Below, one piece after another: positions 1 through 64,000 of a stretch of 64,000 nucleotides of DNA; position 1 is the first letter of the stretch; each line of letters starts with the position of its first letter. The stretch is from positions 62,001 through 126,000 of the forward strand of contig QPGO01000101.1 of assembly GCA_008632985.1 (NCBI GenBank), written 5' to 3'. The position numbers and the translations under genes are program-made. The notes under the pieces are model-generated. The model searched no databases. It was not told where the DNA came from and saw nothing but the letters and a program-made list of their open reading frames with translations. Source of the DNA: Psammoneis japonica. Lineage: Eukaryota.

Positions 1-2064
1 GGGAAAAAAGTGGCACCAATGATTGATGATTGTTTTTGGTGTCCAATCTAAACTCAAACAGAAGAGACTGGAGTGGCTTTTTGCAGCCTGTGAACAGAAA
101 AACAAGTTGAGCTCTTCCAGAGTGGCGCGCCACACATTTTCCAGCTTTGAATGGAGTGGTGAATGTTCTGTTGCACCACCAAGAGAAATCTCAGTCAATG
201 TGAAACAGCTTGCACTTTCTGGCAGGTGTGGGTGGATGTGTCAACAAATTGAGTTGCCCTGGGGTTCATGATGCCTGCAAAAAAAAAAAACCATCACAGG
301 TCCCATTGTGCACTCCAACACCCCAGCCTTCTTTTGCACCAATTCAAGAACCCTTGGTGCATCAAACAGCTCTCCCAACTCATCCACCAACAAGACAAAC
401 CACAGGGGAAACCCCATCCAATTCACCAACAACCTTGATGCCTGCCCAGGATCCAACTTTGACACCAACAAATTTCTCCAACAGCCCAAACACTTGATCC
501 TGTGGCAAGAGCAACATTGAGCCCAACAAGTTTGCCAACCACATTGCAAACATTGAATCCTGTGTCACCTCCCATGCTGTCTGTGACTCAGGGACCAACA
601 CCCATCCCTTCAAACTCAACCATGCCCATGCCAAATTCAAACCCCTGCTTCATTTTAAACACCTTGTCCAACACAAAAAGAGCCTCACCTGTCCCAGCAA
701 GGCATCTCACTCTGGCACCAGCTGATGCACCAAAGAAGGCCCAAACACTGCCAGAAGTGAGTGACAATGACAAGAAAATTGAAGTGGCTTCAGAACTGGG
801 GTCCTTGGGTGCTGGCAGGAATGCCAAAACAACAATGAATGCAAATCTTCAATGTGTCAGAGTGGTGCTTGTGTGGCATGGTCTGCTTGCTTCCCAATCA
901 AGCACAAAACTGGCATGCTCTCTTTGACAAAGACAGAGCCAACAATCAACACTGTGTTTGATGCCTCTGCTTTTTTGACTCAAGCGGCCACCAAGCTTGG
1001 CACAATCAAGTTGACCAGACATGCAGCATGATGCAAAGCTGCACCATGTTCGCGGAGAAGATGGAGGTGCTCAATGTCTTTGTGGTGGATCTGTTTGAGT
1101 TGGACTTGTCATTTTGTGATTTTGGATGCCATGGAATTGATCGACTTTTGTGCTGTGACACAAAACGCACCCACGATTTAGGCTGCAAATGCTTCCCTGT
1201 TGGAACCTGTCTTCAAATCGTCCTCGTCATTCACAACTCAAGGCGGTGTGGTTGCGCAGGTCATGCCAATGAAAATGTTGCCACTGCAACAATGCATCCT
1301 GCCTCCTCTCTGGTGTTGGCACATGAGCTTTGTCATTCACTCTCTGAACCAGGCAATGAGTGCCATTGTGGGCGTGGCAATGACTCGGCCTCACGGGGAA
1401 GGCAAACAAGCCAAAAGGTTATGACAGAGTGAAATGCATCCCTGGTTGCACAAACAAGGCCTTTTTTGGTAAAGGCGATCCAAGCGGACTGCCCAACCGC
1501 TAAAGTGTGAAAGCTGTTTCTATTTAAAATGATTTGAGGGTCTTGTCACTAGCTTGTCAATTTTGTTTTGGCCAAAAGTTATCATCCAGCATGTGTCGAA
1601 TTGCACTGCTCTCCTAACACCCCGTAGAGTCTTTGGGACTACCCTTGGGTCTAAAGTCAACGACGCTCGTGTGTTGGCCCCGCAAGATTTGAGATTGCCG
1701 AGAGATAGACAAAAATCATGGCGGGCAATTCAAATCCCGCGTCTTGGAGGGAATCCTTGCCACGCACCACGGCGAGTTGAAAGCCACCGTTTGTCGCGGC
1801 AAATGAAATGATCCAAGCCAGAGCTTCTCCGTCTGACGACGCTTGGCAAAAGGAAAGATAACACTAGTTGGAGAGATTTGATAAGGTTAGGAAAAAATAC
1901 AGCCCGCGTAACTCAAACGATTTCTCAAAACTGTTGCACGACGAAAGTGTTTGGAGCAGCAGAGCACGCGAAGAAGGCGTCTTGCCGAGGGAAATGCGTT
2001 GTAGGATACAAGAAACTTGAAGAACACCTCACGAAATACTGCATGGATAGTTTCCAAACGTGGC

Positions 2065-3981
2065 TCACAGTTCATCACTCTTTGCCGTGACACTTTCAAG
2101 CATCTCCTTAGCTTGCAATGGAGTATAGCCATATTTCTTCATGTTGCCACTCAACGTTTCCCAACTTGGAGAGTATCGATCATAACAGCAAAACGGAGAC
2201 ACCTTGTCCAAGTGGTCAGAGCAACCTTCACTCATATGAAATGCATCCATGGTTGAATTCCAGATAGGTATTTTCACGGATCTCTGCTCCCTCTCCTCGG
2301 CCGTGAAGTTGATCTGTGCTCGAAGAGTGCATTCGGAGACGAGACAGTTACACATATAAAGAGTCCAAACCTCACCGTCACCTGTCCTGATAGATAAAAG
2401 ACGGGTCCAAGTTTCGTCGTTTGTCTTTAAACCCGGTGAAAAGCGCAGCACTCTACTCCCCGGAAAAGCGCCGTCAAGTTCATAATGTAAAACAGATTCG
2501 GTTGCCGTCATCTCTGTGTCTTTCCTCTCCACGTATCCAAAGAAGCGTAGTATACCGCCCACTACCATTTTCATGGTCCAGTCGGAAAGTGGAGTCCCCG
2601 TTACATCTCCATTGTTGGGTAGCCAGTCTCCTCTATTAATCTTGGTACAGATGGCGACCTTCCATGGAAACAACATCGACAAGGTAGTGGCACCTGTTAC
2701 TCTGTAGCTTTCAATCTGGGTGTGAAAGTCATATCGAGGAGCCAAGACCTCTCCGATCATCTCGAATGCTTTGCCCCTGACCCAGTCAACATTTACAATT
2801 GAGGGGTTCTGATGAGTTGTGTAAAAGGCAAGGTGGAAGGAAACGTCGTTGTTTCGGATTAAAGTGGCATTAAAGTGGTTGGCGACCGTTCCAAGACTTT
2901 CGTGCTCTTCAAAAAACACCTTGGGAGATGAGATCCAGGTTGGTGCAATGTCGTTTATTCTTCGAAGGACCTTCAAATCGTACATTAACAAATGATTCTC
3001 AAAAAACTGAGATACGTCAAAGAGCCACGGCAGCGATCGGCGGGTGAGTTCCTCTGGCTTCTGCTGGGCTTGCCAGTTTCCATTATCGGTTCCATGAAAG
3101 ACTTCAACCCTTTTCATATCCGGCACAGATTCCCATAAGACTGTGTTCATAGCTAATATGTCCATTTGACGCTTGGGCATTTTCAATTCCAAGTCTTCAC
3201 TGGGGCATGGCGCGTTTCCCTCTTCGTCATAATTGACTTCGAGAGACTCGCCTCTTTGACGATACTCTTGAGCAAGCGCCAAATCCATGGCCATTTTTCG
3301 AATCATCGTCTCCGTCGAAACAAACAAGTCGTGCTCTCGAGGGAGCTGGTGAACGTCGCAAGCCGCAACCACGAGGTAGTCAATGGGAAATCCAATGGAT
3401 TCCAGGTGCGCCGCAAACTTCTCACCGATATACCTCGACATTCCGTTTCCTGCATACCCATTGGTGAAAAACAAATGCGCACCTGCAGAAGTCTCTTTGG
3501 TAACATTTTGGACAACCCTGTCGACGCCCAATCCCCGCGCAATGTCTTGAGGAAAAAGAAACAAGGTATGGTACCTCGGCGACAAGTAGTCCTCAAAGGA
3601 ATGGCATGCAAAGAGAAGCTCGCGGTGCGATACTACGACGAGAATCCTTTCACTGTCAATGCTTGGGCCATGGATGGTCCAAGTATGCATCTGGTGAAGG
3701 ACATCGTTATAAGGCCGTTCCGTCTTGTCCAATAACGATCGTTTAATTTGCATGGTGTGCCGTTCTGCTTCTTCCTGATGATGGGCGGGGTGGATCAAGA
3801 GAGCATTTTGGCCAATCATTGATGCATAACGGATGTTCCACATCCCACAATAGAGTAGCAAAAGTGAGAGAATGGCAAAGATGTGACTCTTTGCAGTTCG
3901 CATTGCCCTTCTGCCTCCATTTTGAAGCCGGGTACACAATACACTATGGTTCGAAGCAGCAGTCCTGTTTGTGGCATCCAT
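2065..3981 (-). CDS. Type II membrane protein, possibly GT-A fold (GT2-like) glycosyltransferase, ~638 aa
   Basis: Long uninterrupted ORF in a TpA-retaining island, with normal Tyr content. Start placed at the ATG at 3981 (MDATNR) rather than the non-ATG ORF start at 4212. Signal anchor HIFAILSLLLLYCGMW. Segments ILVVVSHRE, YLVVAACDV, FFENHLLM and FFEEHESL resemble GT2-type motifs (weak resemblance). The CDS is well supported; the function is tentative. Confidence 0.7.
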   Translation of the reverse strand: MDATNRTAASNHSVLCTRLQNGGRRAMRTAKSHIFAILSLLLLYCGMWNIRYASMIGQNALLIHPAHHQEEAERHTMQIKRSLLDKTERPYNDVLHQMHTWTIHGPSIDSERILVVVSHRELLFACHSFEDYLSPRYHTLFLFPQDIARGLGVDRVVQNVTKETSAGAHLFFTNGYAGNGMSRYIGEKFAAHLESIGFPIDYLVVAACDVHQLPREHDLFVSTETMIRKMAMDLALAQEYRQRGESLEVNYDEEGNAPCPSEDLELKMPKRQMDILAMNTVLWESVPDMKRVEVFHGTDNGNWQAQQKPEELTRRSLPWLFDVSQFFENHLLMYDLKVLRRINDIAPTWISSPKVFFEEHESLGTVANHFNATLIRNNDVSFHLAFYTTHQNPSIVNVDWVRGKAFEMIGEVLAPRYDFHTQIESYRVTGATTLSMLFPWKVAICTKINRGDWLPNNGDVTGTPLSDWTMKMVVGGILRFFGYVERKDTEMTATESVLHYELDGAFPGSRVLRFSPGLKTNDETWTRLLSIRTGDGEVWTLYMCNCLVSECTLRAQINFTAEEREQRSVKIPIWNSTMDAFHMSEGCSDHLDKVSPFCCYDRYSPSWETLSGNMKKYGYTPLQAKEMLESVTAKSDEL

Positions 3982-6900
3982 TTTTATTCCTGTTTTGATT
4001 GTGTGAGTCTTTGCCAGAGACTTATTGGAGAAGAAGCGAGGGCTCATTGATCGATCCGCGGTGCCAACAATAAGCCACTCAACGCAACTTTTCAACGGAC
4101 GGAAAATTTTCTGCTCACGTGTTTTTGGTCCCGCGCATGCATCTGTGACAAAACCACGTGGAGGTTCTACTTCACAAGCGGAAACCCACATGATTCCTTG
4201 AACATCAACCAAAATCGATGCAGCATCGATTGGTTTCTTTGGCTTGAACTGTTTATCTTTTACGAGATTGTGATGCTCTATGGTCCGGCAATGGCATCAC
4301 GGCAACACGGCATCGCACACACTGTGCTTTTTTTGCCCTGCGCCGATCTCTAACATATTGATTTTAATCAAAGACGCTTTTGATGATAAAGCAGCAGTGT
4401 TTTGGTGTGCCGCGGCATCATGCGCGGCCTTTGCGCATTGATTTCTCACATTTCCGTTGAAAAGATGCTTCAAAACCAAAACACTGCAACTGTCACCATG
4501 GCCTGCACCCGGCTGAGCTTCCAAATGATGGCTCAAGTGGGGCAAGCCAATTTCCAGTCAACAAGCTGAAAAATTTGTTCATTTGCGGGAGCTGATTCTC
4601 CTGGGCACACACACACACACGCGTGGGATCGCACTCAACGATTTCGGTGCTCATGGTGTGCGATTCGCTTTTCGTCTTGAGGATGGTCTTAAGTCGACTT
4701 TTTTAGCATGCTCAAGGAAGCAGTGAGGTGGCACGACCTCGAAAATGGGGGAGCTGTCAAATCAGCCACGCGTGCACACACACACACACACACATGCGCT
4801 CACAATGTGGTGAATGTGCTGCTGCAGCAGCTTGGGAGAATGTGCACGTTGCCATGCTGGTTTTGTAAGGAAATTTGCTGCTGCCAGCTCTGCTCTCTGC
4901 CTCATCCCAAAGCACATCAACAATGGCTGTGATGGTCGCAGGCTGGTGGTTCCCATGCTGGAGATTGCTGGTTGGCGTGTGCAGCGGTGGCTGTGGATGG
5001 TGCGTTGTTCTCAAGAAGAGAGGTGGCAGCTGAGCCATTGAGCAGCACAGGAGGGGCTGTGCCATCAAGAACCTGTCACAGCAATTTGTTTGACAAGGCG
5101 GTGGTGTGCAGGAACCCAAGCTTGGTGTGTGACAACACTGCTGTTGCTTGGCACAGAGGAGGAAAAGATTGTTTGTGTTTTGTCAGAGTTTTTTTTTTCT
5201 GGCTCCAATGGGCTCATCCAAAATGGGTTCTGCTGCCAAGTGGCTGGGGTGTGTGAGGTGCACAAACAATGGACCATGCAGCATTCCAGGAGCATCCCCC
5301 CCATCACAGTTTGCACTGTCCTTTGCTGCAAGGGCAGCACAATGTTTGCCATTTCTGTCCCTTGTTCTTGCTGCGCCAGTTGCCTGGTGGTGGTGGTGGT
5401 GGTTGGAATTTGGCATTCTGGGAGGCACATGACCCACTTTGCCAGCACCCTGCTTTTGTTGGCATCATTGGGTTGTTGTTTGAGTTTTTTTGTTTGGCCT
5501 GGCTTCTTCACACCAAAAGCAGCAGCAAAACAAAAACTCTGGGTTGTTCTTGGGTGTGTGCCACAGCACCCATGATGGAGCTCTGCACGTGAAATGTGGC
5601 ACACACATCATGATGATGAGGAGAAAGGAGTCATTGTGTTTCGCTGCCAGGCAGCAGTGGCTCTGCCCTTTTTTCCACTCTCATTCTTTTGCCCAGCACA
5701 CACACTTTGGGTGCAAAAAGCCTCATGTGTGGTGGGGCAGCACTGCACACCATGCTCTTGTCTGTGTGCAGTGTGGCACATGCTGCACATTTTCCTCATG
5801 TGTTGTGTGTGAGAGAACAGCAGCAGAAGAACAGACAGACAAACACCAAATGTGCACAAGCCACACACCACAAGAGGTGTCTCCTCAACATCATCATCTT
5901 TCATCTTTCTCCAAGGTGTGTGTCACCAACATTTCCATGCAGAGTCTTGCCGTCTTTTGGCACAAATGTTGGTGCACAAGATGCCCTCCTTTTTCTCTTC
6001 TTCTTTTCTTTGTGTGAAAACACACACAAGATTTTCTGCTGGGTGCCAGCCGGCACGCATGAAGGAGAGTCTTTTTGTGAAGAAAAATGTGCTGCTGTGC
6101 TGTGAGATTCTTGCTGTTCCAGTGTGGTGAGTCCAGCAAAGTTGAGCTGGCAGAGTGCTTTGCAGCATGTGTGGCAGGCTCACACATTGCACCAGCCACT
6201 TTGTGTGTGTGTGTGTGTGCGTGTGTGCATGTGTGTGTGTGAGCCCCCACTTGACTGGTGCTGGTGCAACTGAAATTGGTGGTGGCACGTTCAGAACCAA
6301 GTGCCAACCAAGCCCTTGGATTTGTGGGTGCAAATGAATCTGCAGATTGCATCAAGGCACCCAAGAAGCTCCTGGAGCCCCACTTGGTGACTTCTGGTGC
6401 TGCTGATGCCACAAGGGAGACATTGGCGCACAAGATTCAACGGGGGTCAATGCACGTTTGGGCCCACGAGAAAGTTTGCCACTGCATGAAACAGTCACCC
6501 ATTTTCCCACGACAGCACCCACCCTTTTCCCCTGCACACAATGCTGGTTTGGTGGCGCTTCTTTGCCATGAGTCATTTTGCATTTTCAACCAGCCCGGCT
6601 CCTTTGCCAGACTGGCGTGGATTCTTGCTCATCTTTGCTTGAATCTTCTTCTCCTTTTTTTCTTGTCCTGTCAATTGGTTTTGGCTTTTGTTTGTCTCTC
6701 TTCCTTGTCCTTGCTGGAAAGCTCCAGCGTGGCTTGTGTTCTCACCACCTTCTGTGCAGGTTGTTTGTTGGTCATCATTTCCTTGCCCTTTTTGTTGCTC
6801 TTCTTCTTCTTCTTCTTCTTCTTGTCATTGCTGCACCCTCCTGCATTGAACCACACCCAGCTCACTTGCCCTGCATGTTTTCACCTCCTTCGTCATCTCC

Positions 6901-8669
6901 CCGCCAGTCACACTGTCTTGTTGGGTCAGCACACTTGGGTGCCGGGGTGTCTTCCTCCTCCTCATTGCCTCTGTTGTCATTTCCCTCTCAAATTTTCTTT
7001 TCTTTCATGGCCTTGTGATCCCAAAGTTTCCAGCAGCTCTCCGGTGTCAACAGCTCCAGAGCCTTGTCATTTGCCACACATGGCTCTGCAGCTTTGGATG
7101 AGGATGCAGAACAGCCAGGGTTCAAGTGGATGTCATTGGCAGGTGTCAGCCACTGTCTGGTCTGTGCATGAGCCCACTGGAAGAAGGAGGTCATTCTCTG
7201 GATCAAAATCTTTGGGGAGATTGTTGCATGTGTTGGAGCGCCATTTGTTGCAAACAACTGTTTCTCTGAGGGTTGCAGTCATCTGTGGGAACAAACTTTT
7301 GGAGCCGTTCCTGCACCAGTTGGTTGACATTGAGACTGTGATGGTCGTCAAAAAGGGAGTGGGCAAGCAAGTCCCCCAACATGTCCAGCATTTGGGAACA
7401 GGCAACTTGGCACCCACAAATGATGTGTGTGTCTGGCTTTGGCACGCACACCCTCTTGCGGAGGCATTTTAGCAACTTTTTGTGCTGAAGAGCCTTGGAC
7501 ACATCGAACTTCTTTTTCTGGAGTGAGCAGTGAACTGCAAAATCCTCCAGTGGTGTCAGAACTGTCACACAGTGTGGCCAGCAGAAGAGAAGCTTCCTCT
7601 GCCAGCGCAAAGCTGCAACCAAGCAGAAGGGATGATGCTTCCTCCTCAGCATCATCAGCGGGTTTTGCTGGCGGATTTTTGGCACCCGCTGTGTTGAAGT
7701 CCGAGTTTGCAAAAGGCAAGTGAACTGAAAATCAACATGGTGTTGTCAATGTGTCCAAGGCTCACTGCTTGTTGTCTCACTCAACTTTCTTGCTGCAGGC
7801 CTGTTCCAGCCCCAGGTGATGAGAAATCCATCACGCAAGAGGCCGATTGTCTGTGCAGCTCAGTGCAATGAACTCCTTCAATTTTGATCTTTTTGAAAAT
7901 CCAAAGGTGAGTGTGTGCCAGAAAACACATGCAAAGTGCACAATCGCCCTTTGATTTGGCAAAAACCCGATTTTGAAGGAGTTTGATGCACCAAATGCAA
8001 AAATGGGCCAGCAATTGGAGTCGAACCTGTGTGCATCACCTGGAGATGGAACAGGCCCGACTCAGCCAATTCTCATTGTCTTTCCCAGCATGAGCACATC
8101 AACAAATCCAACGTCGTCGTCACATCATCTGACCCATTTGAGCAATGGCGTTGACCAGATGATTTTTTTAAAGACTTTGACAAAGGAGCTGCAATGCATT
8201 CAGCCAAGCATTCTTGAGTGGGAGAGAGTCAGGCAGATGTGAGCAAAAATGCACAATGGTGCTGGCACGTGGCTCGAGAAAGAAGCAGCCAAACAATGTC
8301 GACAAAAATTGAAAATGTTCTGATGCTGTCATTCTGTGAAATGACAAATGACAGTGAACAGAGCTTCTCCCTGGCTTGTGTGCACTCTAGATTGATCGCA
8401 AAAACACAAATGTCAAATCTGAAAATTGAAAACTGTGGCTTGTGAATGAGCACTCATGGATTGTTTCATCCACCAATGGCATGAAAGAGGTCAAACACAG
8501 TTGTCACGTGGTCAAAGCCAAATTAGAAAGCAGAGCATGGTGACAAAATTGGTTTGATGATGCCATCATCTGATCTTGGTGTCAAGAGCGGGTCAAGTTC
8601 ACCTCGTTGCACTGCAAGTCACGTGTCTTGAATCCCGTGTGACCCGCTCAACTCAATTTTTTTGGAAGT

Positions 8670-8860
8670 TTTAGCACTCTAGACTTTGACCCCAGCCAGA
8701 GCCACAAAATGCACAAGACATGAGCATTGTTGGTCTCATGCTCTTCAAACCAATGTCTTGCGAGAATGAAGTGGGTGTGCATTGTTTGTGGCATCTGGTG
8801 GTTCAAAACAGAGCTGACTTTTCGTGGAGCACCTTTGTCACATGGGCAAGTGCGAGAGTC
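8670..8860. repeat. Dispersed ~190-bp repeat, copy 1 (copy 2 at ~37390-37580)
   Basis: tagactttgaccccagccagagccacaaaatgcacaagacatgagcattgttgg...aatgtcttgcgagaatgaagtggg aligns with tagactttcaccccggcgagagccacaaaacacgcaagatgtgagcattgtcgg...aatgtcttgcaagaatggagtggg. Ends are approximate. Confidence 0.75.
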
Positions 8861-8959
8861 AATGTTCAGCGATTGGTTGGCCCCAGCAACTGGCGTTCAC
8901 CCCCATTCCAGCAGGCCCCCAAAAGTGTGCTGAACTTTGCGTCTGTGTGCTTTCAGTCA

Positions 8960-9170
8960 ATCAAGGTGGGTTTCCTTGAGTTTCATTTTGTCGAAGGCTC
9001 CCGCAACCCAGCTGACATCCTCAGCAAGCGTTGGGGCTGCTCCCAAGTCTGGAGCCTCCTTCATCCTCCAATGTTTTGGAGCTTTGATCCCAAGGCTTTC
9101 AACCAATCTGACCTTGAATCTGTCGCAGTTGACCCCTCAAGCAAACTGGGGAGTGACAGGATTTGAACAA
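8960..9170 (+). mobile_element. Ty1/Copia remnant: RNase H C-terminus, polypurine tract and probable start of 3' LTR
   Basis: Translates to FHFVEGSRNPADILSKRWGCSQVWSLL, matching the Copia NPADILTK/SK motif with WGY changed to WGC. It is followed by ggggag (9148-9153) and then TG (tgacagg, 9154). Confidence 0.75.
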
Positions 9171-9559
9171 AATTCCAGTTTGTCACACACAATTGTGTGT
9201 GCTCTCAGTTCCACGTGTGTCATGTGACACAGTTTGCTTTCAAGCCACACTGCTCACAAGAACAATGACAGCAGCACCAATGTCATGACACCAGTCTTTT
9301 GGCTCCTGCAACAGTCTCTGCACAGAAACCCATCTGCCATTTAGACAGCAGCAAGGAGTTGTTGTTTTCTTCCACCCAGTCATCTTCATTTTCTGTCATC
9401 TGGTGACAGAAAGTTCCTCCAGTTGGTGATCTGGATGAGGAGGGCAATCCACTCAGACATGGGAGCACATGGCAGGATCATCCAGGGAAGTTTTTTTGGC
9501 AAACTCGCGCCAGTTGTGTGCCAAATTTTCTGCAAGGCAAAAGTCAGCAGCAAAGTGGT

Positions 9560-14704: not shown

Positions 14705-14838
14705 TGTCGTTTCTTCGGGCAGAGCACAGGAACACATGTGAAAAGAGACAAAACCCAAAGAAAAATAAAAAGATGAGCCTTTGTGCCGACAAAATCCAGA
14801 AAAAAAAGACTTTGTGTGGATGCATGTCAGTAGATCTG

Positions 14839-54200: not shown

Positions 54201-56320
54201 AGAGAGACATTGGCAAAAAGGCAGCATCATGTTTGAGTGCCACTGCTGCAGTCACAGGATCAGCTGGAATGGGCATCACCAGAAAGTGGCGCCCCACCAA
54301 GATGACTGAAAAGGAATGATTCACACAAGGCATTTGTTGCATGCTTGTTGACAGCAGCCACAGAAGGCATGCCACAACTGCAACGGACAATCGCACTTGG
54401 GTTTTTAAAACAGTCCACAAAAGGAGCCTTGAAGGCAAGAAGAGCAGTTCATTGGAGAAAACATTCATGGCACCTGGAAACAATGCCAGGTCTTGCATGG
54501 AAAACCCCATGGCAGAAGCAAATGGATGACAATCAAATGGCACCACAGGATGACTTGTGTTCACCACAAAAAGAGCAAAGTGCTTGATTGCATGGCAGAG
54601 AAGAGAAGCGGGGTTGAAGACTGATTGGCAAGAATGAAAGCAGTCCGGAAAAGTGACAAACAGATGTTCAGTGGTGACACGTGGAAACAACACCAGATCT
54701 TGCACAGAAAAGCCAATGGGAGTGGCAAATGGATGACAATCAAATGACTCCGAAGGACAACTGACACTTTTGCTGAAAAGGGCCACAACAGAAGTGGTGC
54801 TTGCACCACAAAGAGTGAAGGACTTGATTGCATGGCAAGGAAAAGAGGCAGCATTGAAGACCAATTGGCAAGGACAAAAGTGGTCTGGGGAAGTGATGTG
54901 CAGCACTGGAACCTGTGTAGAAAATTTTCTGAGACAACAGAAAATTGCAAGAAATGACAACCAGCATGCAAACCAACCGGCTGCAACACTCGTCATTTTC
55001 CACTGATGAACTTTGCTCATCATGCTGCAATGAGGATGCACCATTGGCAAAGGTGGACAGAATGGGCTTGTTGGGGCCAAATCAACACCATCTGCGAAGA
55101 GCAACATCAGTGTGAGAAGGTGCATGGAAACCCATGCAGAAGCTGAGGGCATGCAGCTGATGTCAAAAAGTGTGACTTGCCCAGAAGAGATGGGGAGTCA
55201 TCATCTGGTGAAGAACATGGAGTCCAAGGAGCTCAGGCTGATTCTCGCAGGTCACACAGGAGGACATCTGGAGTGTGCCCAATTGGGAAGTTTGTCACAA
55301 CCTGGGGTGTTGGCAATGAAGCTGCAGCCTGTCAAGGGAGGGATTGGATCATCAGCAAAAGGCAGAGGCATGTCAGTGCCCCAACCATCTGTGCCCTGCT
55401 GTTGTTTGGAAGCCACTTGCTGCCAGTTGGTGAGGACCAAAGCTCTGGCTTGTGGAGTTTGTTGGTTTGATTGACAGACCCAATGCAGTCTCCTTCAACA
55501 TGAAATCAACCACCTCACCCACAACATCAGACAAAAAATGTCAAGCAGCAGGGCACACATGCATGATCCCATGTTGCCCTCAGCATCAGCAATGAAAGCA
55601 TCAGCCCAGCCAGCAAGTGCAGCAAGTTTGTCATCCAGGGCATCCAAGAGCTGTTTGCAGTGCAACACTCCAACATCTCAAGCACCATGACTTGCACAAT
55701 TGTGTCAAAAATGAAGATGTCATGTCACTTTCTCAAGATGCCAGCCAGACCCAGATCATGTCAGCGAGCATGTTTTTTAAGTTGAGGGCACCAGCCTTCT
55801 TCCATCTGGTCTGGACAGTGTCCATCATTGCCCCCCACACAGCCCACCCATTGGACACTTTTCAACAAGATCAAAAAGAACATTGAGACCTGGTCAGTGG
55901 GCCTGCTCCTTGGCGTCACAAGGCCATGCTCCATTTCTTTTGTGAAGGGTTGAATGTTGAATGGCCAGTGTTCCCTCCTGTGCACCAGATGGCATGGATT
56001 TCTTCACTTCAAGTTGTCCAGTTGCATTGACCAGATTCTGGTTTAGTTGCATTTTGTGAACAATTGACCAAAAACTGCATTGTTGCTCCTTTAGCAGAGC
56101 ATCTCTGCTTGCACTTTGTCTGGGGGGAGAGTGGAGTGGACGTCCAGGAGATGTGCTGGAAGACGCAAAATAAAATTCAGCTTTCATCGTGCACAGTTTT
56201 TAGTCTGTTGCATGAGGTTCAAGATGAGTGACAATCAATGCGCAACATTCAACTTTGCCAACTGTTGTGCACCGAACCGGGGCAAAGATGTGTCAAAATG
56301 CACAATTGAACTAACAATTC

Positions 56321-56503: not shown

Positions 56504-57856
56504 CTAAATTTTGACGCCACTGTACATCCCTGGCGACTGACCGAGGTCCTGGGCCGTGGGAAACCCCTGCGGAACTTGATTCTTGATGCAGCATCCGAAA
56601 ACGCTGAAATTTGGACTCGCATCTGGATCGACTGCACTGTACCCGGCACATTCCGACATGGCACTGCACATGTCTTGGCAAACGGGGTATGCATCATCGA
56701 GCGATCGTGCAAAACCAAGAGGAATGCAAGGAAGAAAACGGTCATTGCCAAATATATCTGTGGACGGATATGGGGAATAGTTAGCCTGAGGGGATGGGCA
56801 AGACGATGATCCTTTGATGCCACTCGTCATTCCTTGTGTAGAAGATTCCGATGGAACATTGTCCTTCAAAAAACAAAGATTGCGGCTGCCATCCATTGTA
56901 AAGGCTTTGCATTCGGGGTGTGCAGCACAAAGGTCCTTGCATTCTTCAACAGCATTGTCAAAAGCCATGTCCAATGGAATACCAATAAAGTCACCTCCAA
57001 ACAAGTCCTTCCCTTCGAGCACTGTGAATCCGCAGGACAAAAGAGGGGTAGGCCGAGGCGTGGGCGAATTTCCTTGATCAACAGTGCTGCTCGCGGTATC
57101 GTCATTGTCCCCAAGAACGAGCACAGCTGCGATTGTGACTCCTGCAGTCACCACCAACGCCAATAGAATGGCTCCAGCAATTATGCAGATCCTTCGGGTG
57201 TCCTTTCTACTTGCCATGTCTTCGATTGGAGAGGCGACTAGCCTTCCTACTAGCTCCGGTTGTTCTCGCCGTTCTTTTCCTGAACCTACTGCTCCAGCGC
57301 TCATCAAGATTTTGGTGTCGCCACCCCGATTGTCAGGAAGCGGTGGTTGCTCAATATCGGGGGCAGCCGGTGGTGGCTTGTGCCGTGGCATGGGAGGTGG
57401 CATGGGACTGCGCCCTGGTGCTTGCACGGCTACGGCGCCAACTCCGCGAGGATTTCGAGATGCAACGCCTGCTGGTTGAGCTCCAGCGGCGGCAGTTTCA
57501 CCCAATGAGACGCCCACATCTGGTACGGCACGAGAAATGCCGGCTGCCGATTGGTCGCCTGCTGAGCTCGGTGGTGGTTCACCGGACAATGGAAGCTCTT
57601 GTGCTACCTTCTCTTTCTTGCAGTCTCTCTGTTTGCATTCCATTGCTTGTTCATGTTTCAAGGCATCTTTTTCGGTACTATTCATCCATGGGTTATGGTT
57701 TGGAGACTCGTCCGCCTTGTCATTTTGTGTCGACTTGCATGGCTTCGAATCATCGTCATTATGTTTCTTGACTATCTCAATTCCATGATTAGACGAGAAC
57801 GCTCTCGTCTCTGATTCCTCACCCGCAGGCGACTTTTCACCATTGTCAGAAGCCAT
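56504..57856 (-). CDS. PAN/apple membrane protein, paralog 3, 450 aa
   Basis: Full-length homology to the other two paralogs, with a shorter Pro/Thr stalk; intact ORF. Confidence 0.88.
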   Translation of the reverse strand: MASDNGEKSPAGEESETRAFSSNHGIEIVKKHNDDDSKPCKSTQNDKADESPNHNPWMNSTEKDALKHEQAMECKQRDCKKEKVAQELPLSGEPPPSSAGDQSAAGISRAVPDVGVSLGETAAAGAQPAGVASRNPRGVGAVAVQAPGRSPMPPPMPRHKPPPAAPDIEQPPLPDNRGGDTKILMSAGAVGSGKERREQPELVGRLVASPIEDMASRKDTRRICIIAGAILLALVVTAGVTIAAVLVLGDNDDTASSTVDQGNSPTPRPTPLLSCGFTVLEGKDLFGGDFIGIPLDMAFDNAVEECKDLCAAHPECKAFTMDGSRNLCFLKDNVPSESSTQGMTSGIKGSSSCPSPQANYSPYPSTDIFGNDRFLPCIPLGFARSLDDAYPVCQDMCSAMSECAGYSAVDPDASPNFSVFGCCIKNQVPQGFPTAQDLGQSPGMYSGVKI

Positions 57857-59118
57857 TGCGGTTTTGTGCCACTGTCTTAATCCGAGCCGATTGCGGTATC
57901 GTCGCTACTCAAGTGTTGTTGTCGATATGACTGTGAAAATGAGACGAGGCAGGCGAGCGACGAGCGAAACGCATGATTTTCATTCTCGTCCAATAATAGC
58001 AACCGTAGAAGGAATAGGGTTGTAATGATTTGAGTGACACGAGGCTTCTCATCACACCAACAACATGAATGACCATCGCGTTTTTGCTTGCATGTTCCTG
58101 TGCTTGCGCGAACGCGTTATTTTCGCGTTATTGTTGATAGGGTCTGTCAATCGTCCGACTCGGCCATGCAAGTCGACTACGGATACCAACTCTCCATCCT
58201 TTCTCGTAGCCACTTTCTCGTCTCAATGAGTTTACTCACAAAACCAATCTCGCAACGTAGGCGTCTTGTGTGTATGTGCTGTTTGTAATATAAGAACGAA
58301 TGAATCACTTTTCTTCATTTTTCAGATTCGACGACAAAAAATGAGTCCGTGACAGTGTGCTTCATCTGTTGTTTTTGTTGTCTTTTCCTTTCATGTCGGA
58401 CATCCATCTTCCTTCACGACGTCCCAAAAAAAAAGGCAAAACTTTCTTTTCTTTGAAGCAATGTATATTTCCTTCATAGAGTACAAGATGCTCTTGGAAA
58501 GAACACTCGTTTCCAAACAAATTGATCCACAACGCAGGCGTACTTTTCTGTCGACCCGTATCCAAGCAGCGACAATTTAAAAAAAACACCACCGCTTGAA
58601 GTCGTCGTGCATGTCTCGTCCATGCCTCTCGACTATACCATTGCGTCGTACATTACACCGGCAGCTGCTATGGTACACTACCATACGTGCGTTGAGATTT
58701 GCCGGTTGGCAGAACTGCATCTTCTTTTTATTTGTCATGCACCATACACTGTTGTTCCTTGATGCTCTTTGGCACCCATCCCGACTGGCTTGTCATGGAT
58801 ACTACTGCACAACAACAGCAACAATAACAACACAATGTCATATCAATGATGCATGACACAAACGCCCCACTTCCAACTTGTGAACACTGAACACACAACA
58901 TGAAAAAACCTGCTCGTTGCACGGTTTTTGGGTTATGGGCTGTTGAGCTTTCCCAGTCATGGATTTGGTGGCGGTTTACTAATGCGGGATTCCCGACCAC
59001 TCTTCATCCGCGCTCTTTGAAACGGGTGTCGTGCTGTGTCCGTGTTACCCTGTGCGGCATGAACATGATGTGCGGATGCTGATGAGTCGTGCTGTGCGCT
59101 GAGCCCTGTTATTTACAC

Positions 59119-59125
59119 TATAAAA
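59119..59125 (+). promoter_or_regulatory. TATA box
   Basis: tataaaa about 42-48 bp upstream of the ATG at 59167. Confidence 0.45.
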
Positions 59126-59166
59126 CTCTGAGAGAGCCGTCGCACACACACTGCAACACCCACAAC

Positions 59167-60345
59167 ATGAATCACAAACAGTTATTGCAAGGTTTTCAAA
59201 AGGCGTCTCTCCGACCAACAGCGACAGTAGTGCGCGGCCGCGATGGCAAAATCAAGGTCGAACGAAGTGAGCTTTTGAGCAAATCCGAAACACAAGAGCG
59301 TGTTGCCACATCCGTGGCGGCCGGAAAGCTGCGCAAAGGCCTCCCTCAACATCTTTTGGATTCACAAGACCAAGAGCATTTTCAGTTTCCAATCGAGTCT
59401 GGGCTGGTTTACGAATTCAATGATAAGGTTGGCGAAAATGGGTGGCAACGACTCGACGAAAGCTCCGATGCGAGCGACAGAATCCGAGACGAACCAGTTT
59501 TGCCTTTATCTATTCGAGTTGTTACGTTCAATGTGTGGTTTTCTGAGTATGAATGGCAGCATCGTCTTGATGGGCTTATGGCATTAATTGAAAACGAACA
59601 ACCTCAAGTGGTTTGTCTCCAGGAAGTCACGTCTCGCTTCCTCACTCGTCTCATGACGGAGTATCCTATCTCTCGACAAAGATTTCGGCTTGTCAGCTCG
59701 GTTCTCAAGAAGAGTTGGTTCGGTCTCGCCATGCTGGTACATAAGGACCTGCCGTTGGCAAGCGTTGAAATCGTTTCATTGCCGACGAAAATGGGACGTT
59801 CCGCCTTGGTTGCCTCTTTTCATGATGCTGCAAAGAAAACGACGCTTGCTATTGCTACGGTCCATTTGGAATCTCTAAAATCACGACTTATTCGCAATGA
59901 GCAGCTACAGAAAATCCACCAAACATTGAGCCGATACGATGCGGCTCTCTTGGTTGGCGACTACAACATTCTTCGCACCGGTCCATGGGCGGATGAGCAA
60001 GAGGACGACGACTTGCTCACCAACAATCTAGAGAACTTCGATGATTTGTGGCTCCAAAGTGGTAGTGATGATTTCATAGGTGCCACTTTTGACACGAGTC
60101 ATAACACCATGTTGGCACAACGCTGCCACTTTAAAGAGAGCGCCAGATATGATCGTGCTTGCCTCTACAGTGCTTCAAGAAGCGACGGGTTGGTAGGCTG
60201 GGACTGTCCTCGGATTGAAATCGTCGGACGTGAGCCCGTACAAAAGCTAGGAGCCAATGGCAATCCCATTTTCATTTCCGACCACTTTGGTCTGTCACTG
60301 GATCTTGTCCAGAAGACGACTTCTACAGGTGAGGACGAACATTGA
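59167..60345 (+). CDS. TDP2-like (tyrosyl-DNA phosphodiesterase 2-like) EEP-family protein, 392 aa
   Basis: VVTFNVWF, VVCLQEVT, TKMGRSAL, ATVHLES, LVGDYN, DLW, TFD...N.ML, RYDR and ISDHFGL. Intact, with normal TpA content. Confidence 0.85.
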   Translation: MNHKQLLQGFQKASLRPTATVVRGRDGKIKVERSELLSKSETQERVATSVAAGKLRKGLPQHLLDSQDQEHFQFPIESGLVYEFNDKVGENGWQRLDESSDASDRIRDEPVLPLSIRVVTFNVWFSEYEWQHRLDGLMALIENEQPQVVCLQEVTSRFLTRLMTEYPISRQRFRLVSSVLKKSWFGLAMLVHKDLPLASVEIVSLPTKMGRSALVASFHDAAKKTTLAIATVHLESLKSRLIRNEQLQKIHQTLSRYDAALLVGDYNILRTGPWADEQEDDDLLTNNLENFDDLWLQSGSDDFIGATFDTSHNTMLAQRCHFKESARYDRACLYSASRSDGLVGWDCPRIEIVGREPVQKLGANGNPIFISDHFGLSLDLVQKTTSTGEDEH

Positions 60346-63169
60346 TCAATTTCGTAAGTGGTCAGTCTTCTAAACATAGAAAAGTGTGGTTTGCGCCAGC
60401 TTGTTTGGAGATAGCTAGCATCATAGCTACCAAGGACGAATCGTCTTTGGGCAAGTACGAATGACAAAGATTAGTGAAAAGATCCTGTTGAAAGCCACTT
60501 CGTATTATTTTTGCTCCGACATGCGCATTGTCCGCGACCATAGAGTGCGAGAGGCTAAATTATTGTGAGCAACAGTCGCCCGCGACAAAGCGACGAACAA
60601 AGCGCGAACGAACAAATCTCGACGGTGCAATGGGGTCTCTACTAGAACAGAGGGCGTGACATGGTGCATCAAATAAGTTCAAATTAAACGCACTTTTCAA
60701 GGCACGAAATGACACCTGCCATCACAACGGACCATCCACTCCACCTTGACTTGCTTGGTCCCTGCCAGAGTGCCCTTGGCCATCAAGGAGCACTCCTTTG
60801 CTGCTCACCAACAAGCTCCAGCATGCAAAAGAAAGACATTGCAGCCAAATCATTTCACACTTCTTGGCCTAAGTGACAGATGCTTGCCACAGTCATTTTG
60901 GTGCACACTGCATGTTGCACACTTCTGGCACTCACAACCCACCGGTGCACGCCCCGCTCACAAATCTCACATGTTTGCTGGTGGCTGAGTCTCCAGGTTT
61001 CCAGATGCACATGACTCTGCATCACTGTGCCTGTTGTGCCCTGCTTCCTGTTGGTGTTGTTGCTTGCTGCCCCTCAACTCCCAGCTGGGATTGCACAATC
61101 ACACAAATCCAGCTCACAAAAATTTTGCACAATGTGCCGCCATTGCGTGCTCCACTTGGTGCCACAAGCTGTGGCACTGTGGCCTGTCCATCACCCTGCT
61201 GCACATCTTGCTGCTTTCAAAAATCCAAGCCTTGACTTGCACATCCACCCAATTCTCTTTCTGGTTCTTTTGTGTGCAACAAGTCCTTTGCAAGCCCGTG
61301 GCAAGCAAGCTGACAAAGTGAGAGTTGGCGGCTCACTCCAGGCAAGTCCCCATTTTTTGGCACAAGCAATCCATGGTGGTGAAACAATCTTTTGTGAAAA
61401 TGCTGCTGGCACTGATGATCTGTTTGCCATGTTTTTGACTTGGAACAACAAATGTCGACAATGTCACAGCACGCGTCAATGTCTTGGCATGCTTTGAAAA
61501 ATGTTCTCAATCAAAGCAAAAGGCAGAGCGTTGCCACATTGCATGACACTGTTCCTTGTTGGTCCCCACAGCCCCCCAAACAAGCCTGTTTTGTGGGAGC
61601 CTTCAATGTTGTTGTGTGTGAGTTTGCATCGCATCTCTTTCATTGGATTGTTGGGTTTCTTGAAGGTGTTGTTGTTGAGAAGTTGTTGTTTGTGTCACCA
61701 TGGTGTGATGGATGCAATTTGTTGTTTGTCACCAATGGCTGCAAACACCTTGTTTCTGTTGCACTCATCATGCACTGACACCTGCTTGCATTGAAAGCAA
61801 CAATCGCATTGCGTGTGGCAAGTGCTGTGCAGCAGGCCAGCACTGCACAGCAGTTCTGTGCCAGTGACACACGTTTGAGCAATTGCTCTGACCTGCACAA
61901 GGTTGAGTGATTGCTCGAGCATTGAGATTCATGGCGGGCTTGTGGCAAACAGGATGTGGGCAGCAGGAGCCAGAACAAAGGAAGTCAAAGCAGAAGCTCT
62001 CCGAGTTGCAAGTTGGTTTTTGAGGTTTTCAAAAAGTTGGAGGGAAGAGACAGCACCACTGTTGCTGAGCTGGCTGAGTTCAAACCTGGTGACTTTGGTG
62101 CAAAAGATGCATTTTTGACCTCATCCATGATTTCTCACATGCAGAGTCAGCGCTGGCTGTGCAGCAGCACACAGGCTGAATGCCCATTGCAAAATGGTGC
62201 AAACAAGTGTTTTGTCTCAACCTCCAAACAGCAGCTGTGGTGCACAAAATCTTCAAGATTTTGGGCAAAGCCAACCATTGTGCATTGCAACATGTGCTTT
62301 TCAGTGAAAAACATTTGAGCCAACACAGATTGTGCCTGGCACAGATTTGAGGGATTGTTTTGATTTTGTGTGGGGGACAAATCCAGCTCAAGACATTCCT
62401 TTGGTCAAGATGGACTCACAAGCCCCAGCTTGTTGTCGACCCACTGCTGAAATTGACAAAACCTCCACAGCAGCTGAAGCACATTCTTCTCCCCTAAGCA
62501 GTGCTGCAGCGGCTGTGAGTTTGGGTGCCACAGCTGCTCCAGCCCATGACCAGCTTGGCAACAGCCGGTGTGCCCTCAGCACTTCAGACACAAAAACCTT
62601 GTTGGTTGACAGAAAAGACTCTGGGTGAGCAGGCGAACAAAACAGCCACCAACAAAAAGCCAACAACCTTGAGATGCACACCACTGGTCAGATGCACAGC
62701 ACAAATCAATAAAGTTGTCATTTTTTGCATCACCGGGTGTGCTCAAATGGGCCGCCCGCCAGATCTTGGCTCCATTGAGCAGCCAGTGCCCGTGGCAACA
62801 ACCTCCTGCACATCTTAGAAGATTGTGACTTGCTTCTCATGAAGAGAGAGAGACAGAGAGAGAGACAGAGCATGGTGAGTTGATTTGGAAAACTCACCCA
62901 ATCGAGCAAACTCGCATGTCCTCCCCCACCACTCGGATCTTTTTAACACAACAACCTCAACCACGTAAACAACAACAGCCAGCCGCTGATGAAGCCACTG
63001 TCTCACTCCTGACTTCGGCCAGCTTTGTTGTGCCTGCCATTTGTCAAAACAGTTGGACAAACATCCGAACTGGCAGCCCTGCCTTGGCTGCTCTTCATTC
63101 TTTGTTTGTCACATTTGACAGAAAATCGGCTTTGCTGATTTTGTCATTTGTTCAAGAGAGAGTTGAAAG

Positions 63170-63970
63170 ACAACAATGGATGCTGCAACCAAGACCAGCA
63201 TCCCCAAATGTGCGCATTTTGATTCAACCACGGCAAATCCTTCTCAGCGGCCAAGGACACCCCTTGCCACCACCACCCAATGCATCAAGGACCATGTTGT
63301 GTCACTCCAACCTGAAACAGCCACCATCCTTGAGAAGCTTGTGCTCCAACACCTTCAACTGCAAGCCAAGGCCCACAACAAGGCCTTTCATGTCAAGAGG
63401 ATGAGAGTGACGACGAGGAGTTCATCCCCTGCTCAGCCAGAATCAATTTCGAATTTCAAATGTCAAAAGCAGCTGAACAGAGCCAGGAGTTCACAGCTCT
63501 GCAGGAGGAAACAAACAACCTCATTGCCAAAACTCAAAACGCGTTCAAAAAGCAAGCCATTGTTGCCACCAAGATCAACACAAAGTCCTTCAAGAAGAAA
63601 TTTTGGAGTTGCACGCAAAAGCCATTTGACTCGCAACAGAAAGCTTCACAGTGGCCAACAGCATCACCACACCTGTCGATGCCGCAGCAGTCACCCTCCT
63701 CAACCGCCACCATGAAACCCCGCTCAAATGCATCAAAGTCCGTGACCACAAAGCCTTCCTTGAGAAGTGCAAGACCGTGAACAATGTTGCAAACTTGCCT
63801 CAACCAATGATTGCCCCTGCTGGCAGACAACCCAGCACGCAGGAAGACAACAGTGCCAGTGAGTCCTTGTTCATGATGCAGCCACAAGCAGCTCCAACCA
63901 CTCCACAGATCTCTGCAGCCCAACAGAAAGTCAAATCCAAGCTTGACAAAATCTTCCTGAGCATTTGACT
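63170..63970 (+). pseudogene. Decayed ORF in a TpA-free tract, possibly the 5' ORF of a retroelement
   Basis: Protein-like helical frames joined across frameshifts (HVVSLQPETATILEKL...DEEFIPCSARINFEFQMSKAAEQSQEFTALQEET). No catalytic motif lies within the window. Confidence 0.35.
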
Positions 63971-64000
63971 GCATCTTTGTTTCCCCATGGAACACTCACC

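Follow-up and report, generated by a model that had tools for sequence, protein, structure and literature searches.

The 64,000-bp stretch of DNA analysed here (the window), probably from a diatom, alternates between tracts almost devoid of the dinucleotide TpA and islands that retain it. Which process could erase one dinucleotide so selectively, and what directs it? A first-pass annotation had proposed a "reverse RIP", a mutator triggered by homology or repeats that turns TpA into TpG or CpA.

Scale and layout of TpA depletion

Observed/expected ratios (O/E) over the 64,000 bp were 0.237 for TpA, 0.59 for CpG, 1.56 for TpG and 1.55 for CpA. The window was segmented with a two-state HMM on TA density. 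Eleven depleted tracts, 40,414 bp in sum, were found at 1–1419, 4388–13992, 15866–18763, 20686–24311, 26832–28198, 28597–29218, 30017–38360, 38777–41095, 47285–50116, 51977–56043 and 60686–64000. They contain 127 TA against 2,604 expected by composition (O/E 0.05), while ten TA-normal islands (23,586 bp in sum) contain 882 against 1,659 expected (O/E 0.53). O/E values of 0.03–0.10 extend across 63% of the window. These tracts closely match those listed in the first-pass annotation, with a single difference: depletion (O/E about 0.1) includes the segment 30017–33200, absent from its list. The annotation had seen no TpA in 4870–7460, and a TA-free run was indeed found there. This run, 4866–7470, is the longest in the window (2,604 bp) and by arithmetic has a probability of ~e^-97 at island TA density (0.0374 per bp). 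TA-free runs of at least 250 bp number 49 and sum to 31,361 bp.

TpG and CpA are enriched in the tracts (O/E 1.74 and 1.73) relative to the islands (1.26 and 1.22). CC, CT and TC are about unchanged, with no excess of dipyrimidine C>T. In the deep tracts the (TG+CA)/TA ratio is 121, eight times the (TG+CA)/CG ratio of 14.5. Six deep tracts have lost CpG (O/E 0.18–0.37) together with TpA, probably by deamination of 5-methylcytosine. That route likewise feeds TpG and CpA and is limited to silent repeats, but removal of TpA by it is impossible, and four tracts lost TpA (O/E 0.04–0.10) yet kept CpG (O/E 0.58–0.79). Since 84 of 118 CpG are also kept in the PAS-domain pseudocopy described below, the two losses are separable. 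RIP of ascomycete fungi resembles the process seen here in being a hypermutation by transitions at a specific dinucleotide, in putting mobile or duplicated DNA permanently out of action and in its sharp-edged compositional footprint. RIP, however, is a C>T change that creates TpA, whereas the window records an A>G change that destroys it. The annotation was therefore right to set the signature apart from both RIP and CpG decay.

Direction and sequence context of the change

An intact PAS-domain gene with normal TpA (42206..44644, plus strand; Pfam, HMM) served as a reference for its TA-erased pseudocopy (30698..33044, plus strand; self-comparison). The copy was aligned at 30698–33044 against 42339–44670. 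Of 80 TA in the intact gene, 33 are TG, 21 are CA and 11 are still TA in the copy, which confirms the claim that TA became TG or CA. The 27 Tyr codons of the intact gene correspond to 14 Cys, 6 His, 3 Phe, 1 Gln and 3 Tyr. A>G change was found at 56 of 160 sites after T (0.35), compared to 24/364, 33/350 and 17/332 after A, C and G (0.05–0.09 per site). The transition is thus specific to TpA, as had been claimed. On the 3′ side, T-A*-Y changed at 39/99 sites and T-A*-R at 17/61, a trend that alone is not significant (p 0.17), and G at +1 was the poorest context (7/28). Among the TA that survive in tracts, a 5′ A flank occurs in 8.7%, against 28.7% in islands; ATAT accounts for 0 of 127, and CTAG is enriched.

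TG and CA are interleaved along the PAS copy (27 runs, 26.6 expected). APOBEC/AID cytosine deaminases offer a precedent for deaminase hypermutation that defends a host from foreign nucleic acid; in contrast to the APOBEC pattern, no clustered single-strand runs were found in the PAS copy. The presence of 33 TG and 21 CA interleaved in one copy shows that both strands were targeted and excludes an RNA-strand origin. RNA-level A-to-I hyperediting by an ADAR-like enzyme, with the edited repeat transcripts then reverse-transcribed into the genome, is contradicted by this symmetry and by the erasure seen in DNA transposons and intergenic spacers. The 3′ neighbour preferred by ADARs is G at +1; this preference is absent in the window, where that context is the poorest and CTAG is enriched in survivors. 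ADARs do favour T/U 5′ of the edited A, as is the case here (bioRxiv 10.64898/2026.01.13.699255), but on balance such an origin is scarcely credible.

Base-calling errors at modified DNA could mimic the signature. Long contigs built from exact 31-mers of accurate reads of the public DNA run X1, at ~50x, carried the same TA-less sequence as the assembly; over 4180–6191 they differed by 8 letters, only one of which restores a TA. An artefact, which the first-pass annotation had named as a possible refutation, is therefore unlikely, although no record states how the X1 library was made and the run may come from the assembly's own sample, and hence not be independent support. The TA changes also sit amid 17% ordinary divergence and indels. 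A related explanation holds that silent DNA keeps unrepaired lesions or errors, either thymine-adenine photoproducts caused by UV or WA>WG errors of pol-eta, and a light-exposed algal host would suit it. TA photoproducts are reported to yield A>T (PMC10160025), but only 9 of 80 intact-gene TA became TT or AA. Dipyrimidine C>T is not in excess, and the ApA rate (0.066) is not raised, which also speaks against the pol-eta route suggested in the annotation. We consider artefact and lesion alike highly improbable.

Contents of islands and tracts

Depleted tracts have sharp edges and are confined to silent or non-genic DNA. The five large islands coincide with long ORFs, which bears out the annotated link with intact genes, and their edges lie 42–648 bp off ORF ends. 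The island 1420..4387 (minus strand; ORF list, HMM) surrounds a 743-aa ORF (2068–4296), and RNA-like contigs from run X2 map to 2376–3910 within it. X2 contigs also map to 14151–15913, about the island 13993..15865 (O/E 0.63; HMM). The island 18764..20685 (plus strand; Pfam) holds a gene for a UAP56/SUB2-type DEAD-box helicase (exons ~18806–20318), whose best named relatives are from diatoms (86–89%) and whose GT..AG joint 18956>19086 is present in an X2 contig. Three tandem PAN-domain genes, 45235..46866, 50276..51742 and 56507..57904 (all minus strand; Pfam, self-comparison, HMM), are TA-normal and up to 86–87% identical over ~600 bp. An Exo_endo_phos-family ORF (59086..60342, plus strand; Pfam, HMM) also lies in a TA-normal island. 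Across eight intact ORFs, TA is spared (O/E 0.51) at codon phases 2-3 and 3-1, where most changes are synonymous, showing that genes are shielded and not just under selection.

The islands are themselves TpA-poor and mildly rich in TG and CA, which would also fit a milder pressure on the whole genome that is repaired better in genes. Under a purely passive bias, a chemical or replicative TA>TG/CA tendency would be efficiently repaired only in transcribed or open chromatin and would accumulate in heterochromatin without a dedicated enzyme. That island edges track transcription units agrees with such a bias. The magnitude of the effect in deep tracts does not, nor does the PAS pseudocopy, which loses TA while most CpG survives. 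An analogous process in the alga Bigelowiella natans, moreover, is episodic and ~1000-fold above background, which suggests regulation (bioRxiv 10.64898/2026.01.13.699255). We regard the passive explanation as rather unlikely.

The deep tract 1..1419 has TpA O/E of 0.03 and CpG of 0.19, and its ORFs gave no convincing Pfam match. Tract 4388..13992 has 17 TA in 9,605 bp (CpG O/E 0.28) and holds, besides the longest TA-free run, a high-copy repeat at ~6671–10672; X1 depth peaks there at 26,315, compared to ~55 elsewhere. For its 405-aa ORF (6255–7469), 0 homologues were found among 1.84 billion representatives. Tract 20686..24311 (7 TA, CpG O/E 0.29) gave no Pfam match above the curated cut-off. 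The spacer 51977..56043 has 9 TA and CpG O/E of 0.18, and its ORF 54190–55197 has no homologue. Tract 60686..64000, which leaves the window edge, has 6 TA (CpG O/E 0.28). The annotation had described the tracts as transposons, duplications and pseudogenes, which is only partly borne out. No repeat family or homologue was recognised in the six deepest, parts of which are high-copy in X1; coding ancestry was recognisable solely in the four TpA-only tracts.

TpA-only depletion is seen at 30017..38360 (TpA O/E 0.10, CpG 0.58), 38777..41095 (0.07 and 0.71) and the spacer between PAN genes at 47285..50116 (0.08 and 0.60). A Tc1-like (DDE_3) transposase ORF at 36133..37230 (plus strand; Pfam) is TA-erased, with 1 Tyr, 22 Cys and 25 His in 366 residues; all 46 of its relatives have 1.6–6.0% Tyr. 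No TA-erased copy was found among 80 environmental loci of the same family (minimum TpA O/E 0.46), so the trait is not general in carriers of the element. A putative DNA transposon at 25695..28418 (plus strand) has 30-nt inverted repeats (29/30 complementary) and a DUF7869 ORF (Pfam, E 6e-19). Its interior, 26832–28198, is TA-erased, with 0.3–1.0% Tyr in the ORFs, and its AT-rich ends are TA-normal. An erased ORF between spared ends fits better with targeting of the transcribed or small-RNA-covered part than with a simple domain model.

The repeats might have been TA-less before amplification or insertion, through an erased master copy or selection against the target, and so hold no in-situ record. 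The TA-poor segment 8672–10005 does reach X1 contig depths of 17,000–26,000, compared to ~55 elsewhere. In addition, the two old copies 9628–11247 and its paralogue 16483–18220 (80% identity), within the deep tract 15866..18763 (HMM, self-comparison), mostly agree, with TG concordant at 120 positions and CA at 112. Among their double mismatches, however, TG/CA discordance is far ahead with 27 dinucleotides, the class ranking second having 5. Clear descent from TA-containing ancestors is seen in the PAS copy and the Tc1-like ORF, Tyr in a coding element is impossible without TA, and erasure extends to single-copy spacers that separate host genes. Inherited composition is very unlikely to account for the window.

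The annotated homology trigger fared poorly. A true reverse RIP would sense homology, possibly before meiosis, and mutate any duplicated sequence; it would explain the mutated transposon ORFs, the high copy number of part of the tracts and a duplicated host gene of which one copy was hit. RIP is duplication-triggered and strikes both copies, whereas the window spares one member of the PAS pair as well as the tandem PAN paralogues, presumably identical when first duplicated. Many depleted bins are at single-copy X1 depth, and no repeat ancestry could be recognised in the six deep tracts. We find this version quite unlikely.

Candidate agent and related systems

The depletion is probably the work of a DNA-level mutator that converts TpA to TpG or CpA in silent non-genic chromatin, genes being shielded, with a TadA/ADAT-like deaminase as the likeliest candidate agent. 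Action on both strands without runs and the sparing of synonymous TA and PAN paralogues make the process look directed at silent chromatin rather than triggered by homology like RIP. The data show which way the change runs, that it is specific to TpA, strikes both strands, is confined to certain regions, does not depend on CpG decay and is present in accurate reads. Beyond this we infer an enzyme directed by, or excluded via, chromatin state, itself read here from gene position and CpG loss only. The A:T>G:C change at the palindromic TA step would proceed site by site to near saturation. Its target would comprise decayed repeats, transposons, the pseudogene copy and intergenic spacers, with transcription units and 40–650 bp of flank shielded. 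A TadA/ADAT-type polynucleotide adenine deaminase, the most likely candidate, would prefer T-A*-Y, with TAT as best substrate, and its inosine product would be read as G. Tyr codons would turn into Cys or His, TAA and TAG stops would vanish, and signals that contain TA would be lost along with the TA target sites of Tc1/mariner elements, so that mobile DNA would be permanently disabled.

An A>I change read as G is common to TadA, ADAT2-3 and ADAR. The natural substrate of TadA/ADAT2-3 is tRNA, in which U33 precedes the target A34, i.e. T/U stands before the target A. We know of no established system in which natural adenine deamination of chromosomal DNA serves as defence. Adenine- and thymine-directed processes give an identical change at palindromic TA, and the symmetric TG and CA enrichment cannot assign the mutated base. 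The T of TpA could instead be enzymatically modified (e.g. hydroxylated) in silent DNA and mispair with G, which would produce T>C. Dinoflagellates are known to replace thymine, preferentially at TpA; however, 5-hydroxymethyluracil paired with A is only weakly mutagenic, and thymine modification found no support in this analysis. We consider the thymine-directed route unlikely.

The process proposed here is of the same kind as the hypermutation at TpA that was measured in B. natans. In this chlorarachniophyte, mutation-accumulation lines show de novo TpA>TpG/CpA mutations, all of them A>G/T>C at TpA; the DNA targeted is that of integrated giant viruses and virophages, and an ADAT2-like deaminase is proposed, though unproven (Mettrop et al., bioRxiv 10.64898/2026.01.13.699255). 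The first-pass annotation had left open whether such a signature had been reported; with this 2026 report the window's case is not the first of its kind, and a full-text literature search found no report of TpA hypermutation in a diatom. The signature is rare; its only earlier report concerns this one unrelated alga, in which hypermutation is suspected to serve as a defence. In B. natans, too, TpA-depleted genes are enriched for domains of transposases and reverse transcriptases, and the large target is transcriptionally silent.

The two cases also differ. B. natans belongs to Rhizaria, and the window is probably from Stramenopila. De novo mutations were seen in B. natans, whereas the window is known from sequence alone. 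Its targets are transposons, the pseudocopy of a host gene and the spacers between genes, with no viral gene recognised within it, and in six of its tracts CpG loss accompanies TpA loss. TpA-depleted, CpA+TpG-enriched 1-kb windows are clustered in both: here, 35 of 64 such windows pass the published thresholds, in 7 clusters within 64 kb, compared to 124 clusters in the whole B. natans genome. With the giant-virus region of B. natans at rho 0.45, the window is a further and far more saturated case of a kind of hypermutation that is still barely known.

Extent of TpA depletion and the artefact question

Over the whole window the observed/expected ratio (O/E) from base composition was 0.237 for TpA, 0.59 for CpG, 1.56 for TpG and 1.55 for CpA. 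A two-state HMM run on TA density called 11 TpA-depleted tracts: 1–1419, 4388–13992, 15866–18763, 20686–24311, 26832–28198, 28597–29218, 30017–38360, 38777–41095, 47285–50116, 51977–56043 and 60686–64000. They match almost exactly the tracts listed by eye in the first-pass annotation, with one extra depleted stretch at 30017–33200. The basic observation made there, that long tracts are almost without TpA, was confirmed by the HMM, by TA counts and by TA-free runs. Over 40,414 bp the tracts contain 127 TA, compared with 2,604 predicted from base composition (TpA O/E 0.05). The TA-normal islands, which make up the remaining 23,586 bp, contain 882 TA versus 1,659 predicted, their own TpA O/E being low (0.53). 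TA-free runs of at least 250 bp number 49, the longest being 4866–7470 (2,604 bp); by our own arithmetic the chance of a 2.6-kb gap at the TA density of the islands is about e^-97. The tracts have TG and CA in equal excess (O/E 1.74 and 1.73, compared with 1.26 and 1.22 in islands), and O/E of CC, CT, GG and AG does not change between tracts and islands.

Depletion of this kind could be a base-calling artefact of modified DNA, a possibility raised by the first-pass annotation together with a check on short reads. Contigs from a public DNA run (X1; a single study, with no library type recorded) were compared with the window. The run contains 72% of sampled words from 4500–13900, and contig word depth is about 50–60, alike over tracts and islands. 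X1 contigs span 4180–6191 with 8 differing letters and 10395–12876 with 22; among the tract differences listed, a single one (position 5150) restores TA. Kilobase contigs built from exact k-mers at 50x imply accurate, polymerase-read data, which would read methylated A as A. The X1 contigs carry the TA-less sequence and speak against the artefact. The run may come from the assembly's own sample and is therefore not independent biological support.

Among 40 listed of the 240 places differing between the window and X1, five are adjacent double differences, all in the same direction, the window having TG where X1 has CA (5474–5475, 5491–5492, 5810–5811, 7531–7532 and 9874–9875). For every such double, an ancestral TA or CG must have been hit twice independently, once in each of two lineages or haplotypes. 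Such doubles, whether between the window and X1 or between old paralogues, were rejected as proof of independent TA erasure, since an ancestral CpG gives the identical pattern.

Direction, specificity and sequence context

Self-comparison of the window yielded one informative pair (the PAS pair), a TA-erased copy at 30698–33044 and an intact PAS-domain gene (ORF 42206–44644), with 83% identity. The 80 TA of the intact gene correspond in the erased copy to 33 TG, 21 CA, 11 TA and only 9 TT or AA, and these changes sit within 17% ordinary divergence and indels. The gene's 27 Tyr codons read Cys (14), His (6), Phe (3) and Gln (1) in the copy, and 3 still encode Tyr. TG and CA outcomes are mixed along the copy (27 runs; 26.6 expected from shuffles), so both DNA strands were hit site by site. 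No strand-coordinated runs, and hence no processive single-strand signature, were found in the pair.

With the intact copy standing in for the ancestral sequence, A>G changes were found at 56 of 160 sites preceded by T (0.35) and at a rate of at most 0.094 in every other context: 24 of 364 sites preceded by A (0.066), 33 of 350 preceded by C and 17 of 332 preceded by G. C>T outside CpG was not elevated. The difference between T and A at the preceding position does not support error-prone repair by a pol-eta-like enzyme (WA>WG), one of two candidates proposed initially; AA O/E is also unchanged (1.25 versus 1.19), with no elevation at ApA. UV thymine-adenine photoproducts, described in PMC10160025 as yielding A>T, were rejected as well: A>T is not the pattern here, and C>T is not in excess at dipyrimidines. 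RNA editing of the ADAR type, fixed by retro-copying, is contradicted by the strand symmetry of the TG and CA outcomes and by the presence of DNA transposons and spacers among the targets. The 3′ G preference expected of it was not observed, T-A*-G being the lowest context in the PAS pair (7/28). No poly-A tail was found where the PAS pseudocopy ends, so a retrocopy origin lacks support. A thymine-directed route (T>C) would leave the same trace as A>G, TA being a palindrome; we consider this route quite unlikely.

Flanking bases may also influence the outcome. An A on the 5′ side (both strands counted) is found at 8.7% of the 127 surviving TA compared with 28.7% in islands, and ATAT at none of the 127 compared with 7.6%; survivors are enriched for CTAA, CTAG and TTAA. 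In the PAS pair, T-A*-Y was hit at 39 of 99 sites and T-A*-R at 17 of 61 (p 0.17 for this comparison alone). Survivors and PAS pair together tentatively suggest an order of susceptibility, TAT > TAC > TAA > TAG. Separately, ApT O/E is mildly low in tracts (0.80, compared with 0.94 in islands), GpC O/E is raised (1.23, compared with 1.05), and 35 of 159 ApT in the PAS pair became GpT or ApC. The ApT loss may reflect weaker A>G activity where T follows A.

TpA loss does not follow CpG loss. TpA O/E is 0.03–0.10 both in the six tracts with a CpG O/E of 0.18–0.37 and in the four with 0.58–0.79. CpG in the PAS pair is unchanged at 84 of 118 sites. Since four tracts and the PAS copy lost TpA without CpG, decay of 5mCpG was rejected as the source of the TG/CA excess. 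In the six CpG-poor (deep) tracts (TG+CA)/TA is 121, an equilibrium ratio and not a de novo rate, and (TG+CA)/CG is 14.5. Together with TpA loss in CpG-keeping tracts, these ratios indicate that TpA erasure is separable from CpG decay and stronger or faster. CpG decay in the six tracts is most simply explained by ordinary methyl-cytosine deamination.

Genes, repeats and open reading frames

The larger islands coincide with long ORFs, their edges lying 42–648 bp from ORF ends. Island genes include a 743-aa ORF, a UAP56-type helicase, the PAS-domain gene, three tandem PAN-domain genes and an Exo_endo_phos ORF, for which an Atlas search gave no useful taxonomy. The helicase has a GT..AG intron that is spliced in a contig of a second public run (X2). 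This run looks like RNA, judging from the GT..AG joint, and falls mainly on TA-normal islands, except for one repeat at 7338–8671; its lack of cover over the tracts is given no weight. The helicase exon shares 86–89% identity with proteins of diatoms (Discostella, Fistulifera, Corethron, Phaeodactylum), 83% with Triparma and 81–82% with oomycetes, and no protein matched it at 100%. With the Cyclotella relatives of the Tc1-like ORF described below, these identities make a diatom the probable source of the window; it is not Bigelowiella natans, whose proteome is among the sources compared. TA was also counted by codon phase in eight intact ORFs: phases 2-3 and 3-1 have an O/E of 0.51, phase 1-2 one of 0.38. 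TA is thus kept where TA>TG/CA is often synonymous, which implies that genes are shielded and not merely rescued by selection. A passive model, in which heterochromatin is simply poorly repaired, draws some support from the low TpA O/E of the islands themselves (0.53); we regard it as unlikely.

The first-pass annotation proposed a repeat-targeted mutator directed by chromatin or by homology. The homology part of the proposal is not supported. The three PAN/Apple-domain genes (45160–47428, 50224–51653 and 56432–58450, minus strand) are 72–87% identical, up to 86–87% over about 600 bp, and their TpA is not depleted, unlike that of the intervening spacers. In the PAS pair one copy is mutated and the other is not, and within 1–20000 roughly half of the depleted bins are at single-copy depth in X1. 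These observations argue against a RIP-like homology trigger and for a regional, chromatin-type rule. The broader reading of a TpA-erasing mutator acting on presumably silent DNA is supported. We conclude that the process is DNA-level, acts on both strands, converts A:T to G:C specifically at TpA, is limited to non-genic tracts and has gone near to saturation.

The description of the tracts as transposons, duplications and pseudogenes held for part of them; the six deepest gave no family or homologue, and all recognizable domains of mobile elements lie in tracts whose CpG is retained. Pfam matches are DUF7869 (27234–28262), a weak endonuclease/RT match (29112–30275) and a Tc1-like DDE_3 transposase ORF (36133–37230, DDE_3 to 37233). 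These three ORFs were hit and the long-ORF genes spared. The DUF7869 ORF, split by a single TGA (27231–27233), lies in a putative DNA transposon (25695–28418) with 30-nt inverted repeats (25695–25724 and 28389–28418, complementary at 29 of 30 positions), next to which no target-site duplication was evident. This element complicates the picture: its ORF part is TA-erased, and its AT-rich ends are TA-normal, with 6–17 TA per 100 bp. No viral genes were recognized in the window, and no tRNA genes or Rfam matches were found in it.

In the absence of TA there are no TAA or TAG stops, and long false ORFs arise on both strands. The window has 181 stop-to-stop ORFs of at least 110 aa, 128 of which lie at least 95% inside tracts; these 128 have about 0.1% Tyr and often overlap on both strands, tract ORFs in general having 0–1.3% Tyr. 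The 405-aa ORF in the longest TA-free run had no homologue among 1.84 billion representatives, nor was one found for ORF 54190–55197. A Pfam search with 123 further ORFs returned only the two UAP56 exons and weak sub-threshold matches. The false ORFs of TA-less DNA are traps for gene callers, and in genomes of this kind both the prediction of genes and the annotation of repeats will be led astray by them.

Several local features were also noted. A very high-copy repeat occupies 6671–10672, with summed X1 contig depth of 17,000–26,000 at its peak (8672–10005) and about 55 elsewhere; 42–81-nt contigs of a tiny third run (X3) map to both strands at 9130–9275. The high depth was rejected as proof that erasure preceded amplification, since contigs placed at 90% likeness would also sum independently erased copies. 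A 60-bp tandem repeat (38160–38316, 2.6 copies) adjoins a TA-normal, CpG-rich islet of 416 bp within erased sequence (38361–38776; TpA O/E 0.78, CpG 1.54). Where an erased tract meets the island of the PAS gene, two inverted arms of about 130 nt (40321–40447 and 41772–41897, 84–98% complementary) enclose 1.3–1.4 kb.

Known systems and a candidate enzyme

Fungal RIP produces C>T changes (CpA>TpA) that raise TpA and mutates both copies of a duplication; here tract TpA O/E is 0.05, and the PAN paralogues and intact PAS copy keep TpA. The changes seen probably come from an enzyme directed to, or kept out of, particular chromatin states, and the simplest chemistry is adenine deamination, inosine being read as G. 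Natural tRNA substrates of TadA/ADAT enzymes, the other candidate proposed initially, have T/U before the target A (U33-A34); T at −1 is the sole feature here that matches this context.

The closest known case is Bigelowiella natans (Mettrop et al., bioRxiv 10.64898/2026.01.13.699255). According to the preprint, 231 of 302 single-nucleotide mutations in mutation-accumulation lines fell in integrated giant-virus and virophage regions, all but one being A>G/T>C and all on TpA. They arose in some lines only; the de novo rate per site was about 10^-7 to 10^-6 each generation, some 1000-fold over background and episodic among lines. It further describes 124 genome-wide clusters of 1-kb windows depleted in TpA and enriched in CpA and TpG, and enrichment of transposase and RT domains among TpA-depleted genes, and proposes an ADAT2-like protein as the agent. 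The same type of change accounts for 54 of the 80 TA in our PAS pair. With the thresholds given in the preprint, 35 of 64 1-kb windows qualify, in 7 clusters.

Full-text literature searches returned this preprint as the one relevant work and no report for diatoms; TpA-directed hypermutation has been published since 2026, for a single lineage other than the present one, B. natans. The case described here is much more saturated and in a different major group. What has been documented so far by a single preprint on one distant alga is, with a second lineage showing a saturated and sharply bounded footprint, not one species' curiosity; it reaches beyond integrated viruses to transposons, pseudogenes and spacers, and is separable from CpG methylation decay. 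We tentatively propose, at somewhat short of even probability, that a chromatin-directed TpA-editing enzyme, a natural adenine base editor, works in chromosomal DNA as an ancient arm of genome defence common to diatoms and chlorarachniophytes, complete over most non-genic DNA here and both faster than and independent of cytosine methylation. If so, it would wipe out TA-containing signals as well as Tyr codons and the TAA and TAG stops, and setting lineages that carry the footprint against those that lack it would identify the enzyme. Enzymes common to affected lineages and missing from unaffected diatoms offer a handle that could reveal a natural DNA adenine editor.

Relatives of the Tc1-like element were also compared. 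Its 366-residue ORF contains 1 Tyr, 22 Cys and 25 His, while all 46 database relatives have 1.6–6.0% Tyr; named relatives are from Cyclotella atomus. A first metagenome scan with the erased ORF as query returned no relative. Of 87 confirmed relatives, 80 environmental loci of the same Tc1-like family were analysed; their TpA O/E is 0.46–0.99 and none is erased, so erasure is no general property of the element's carriers. Several of the environmental loci show ordinary CpG loss.
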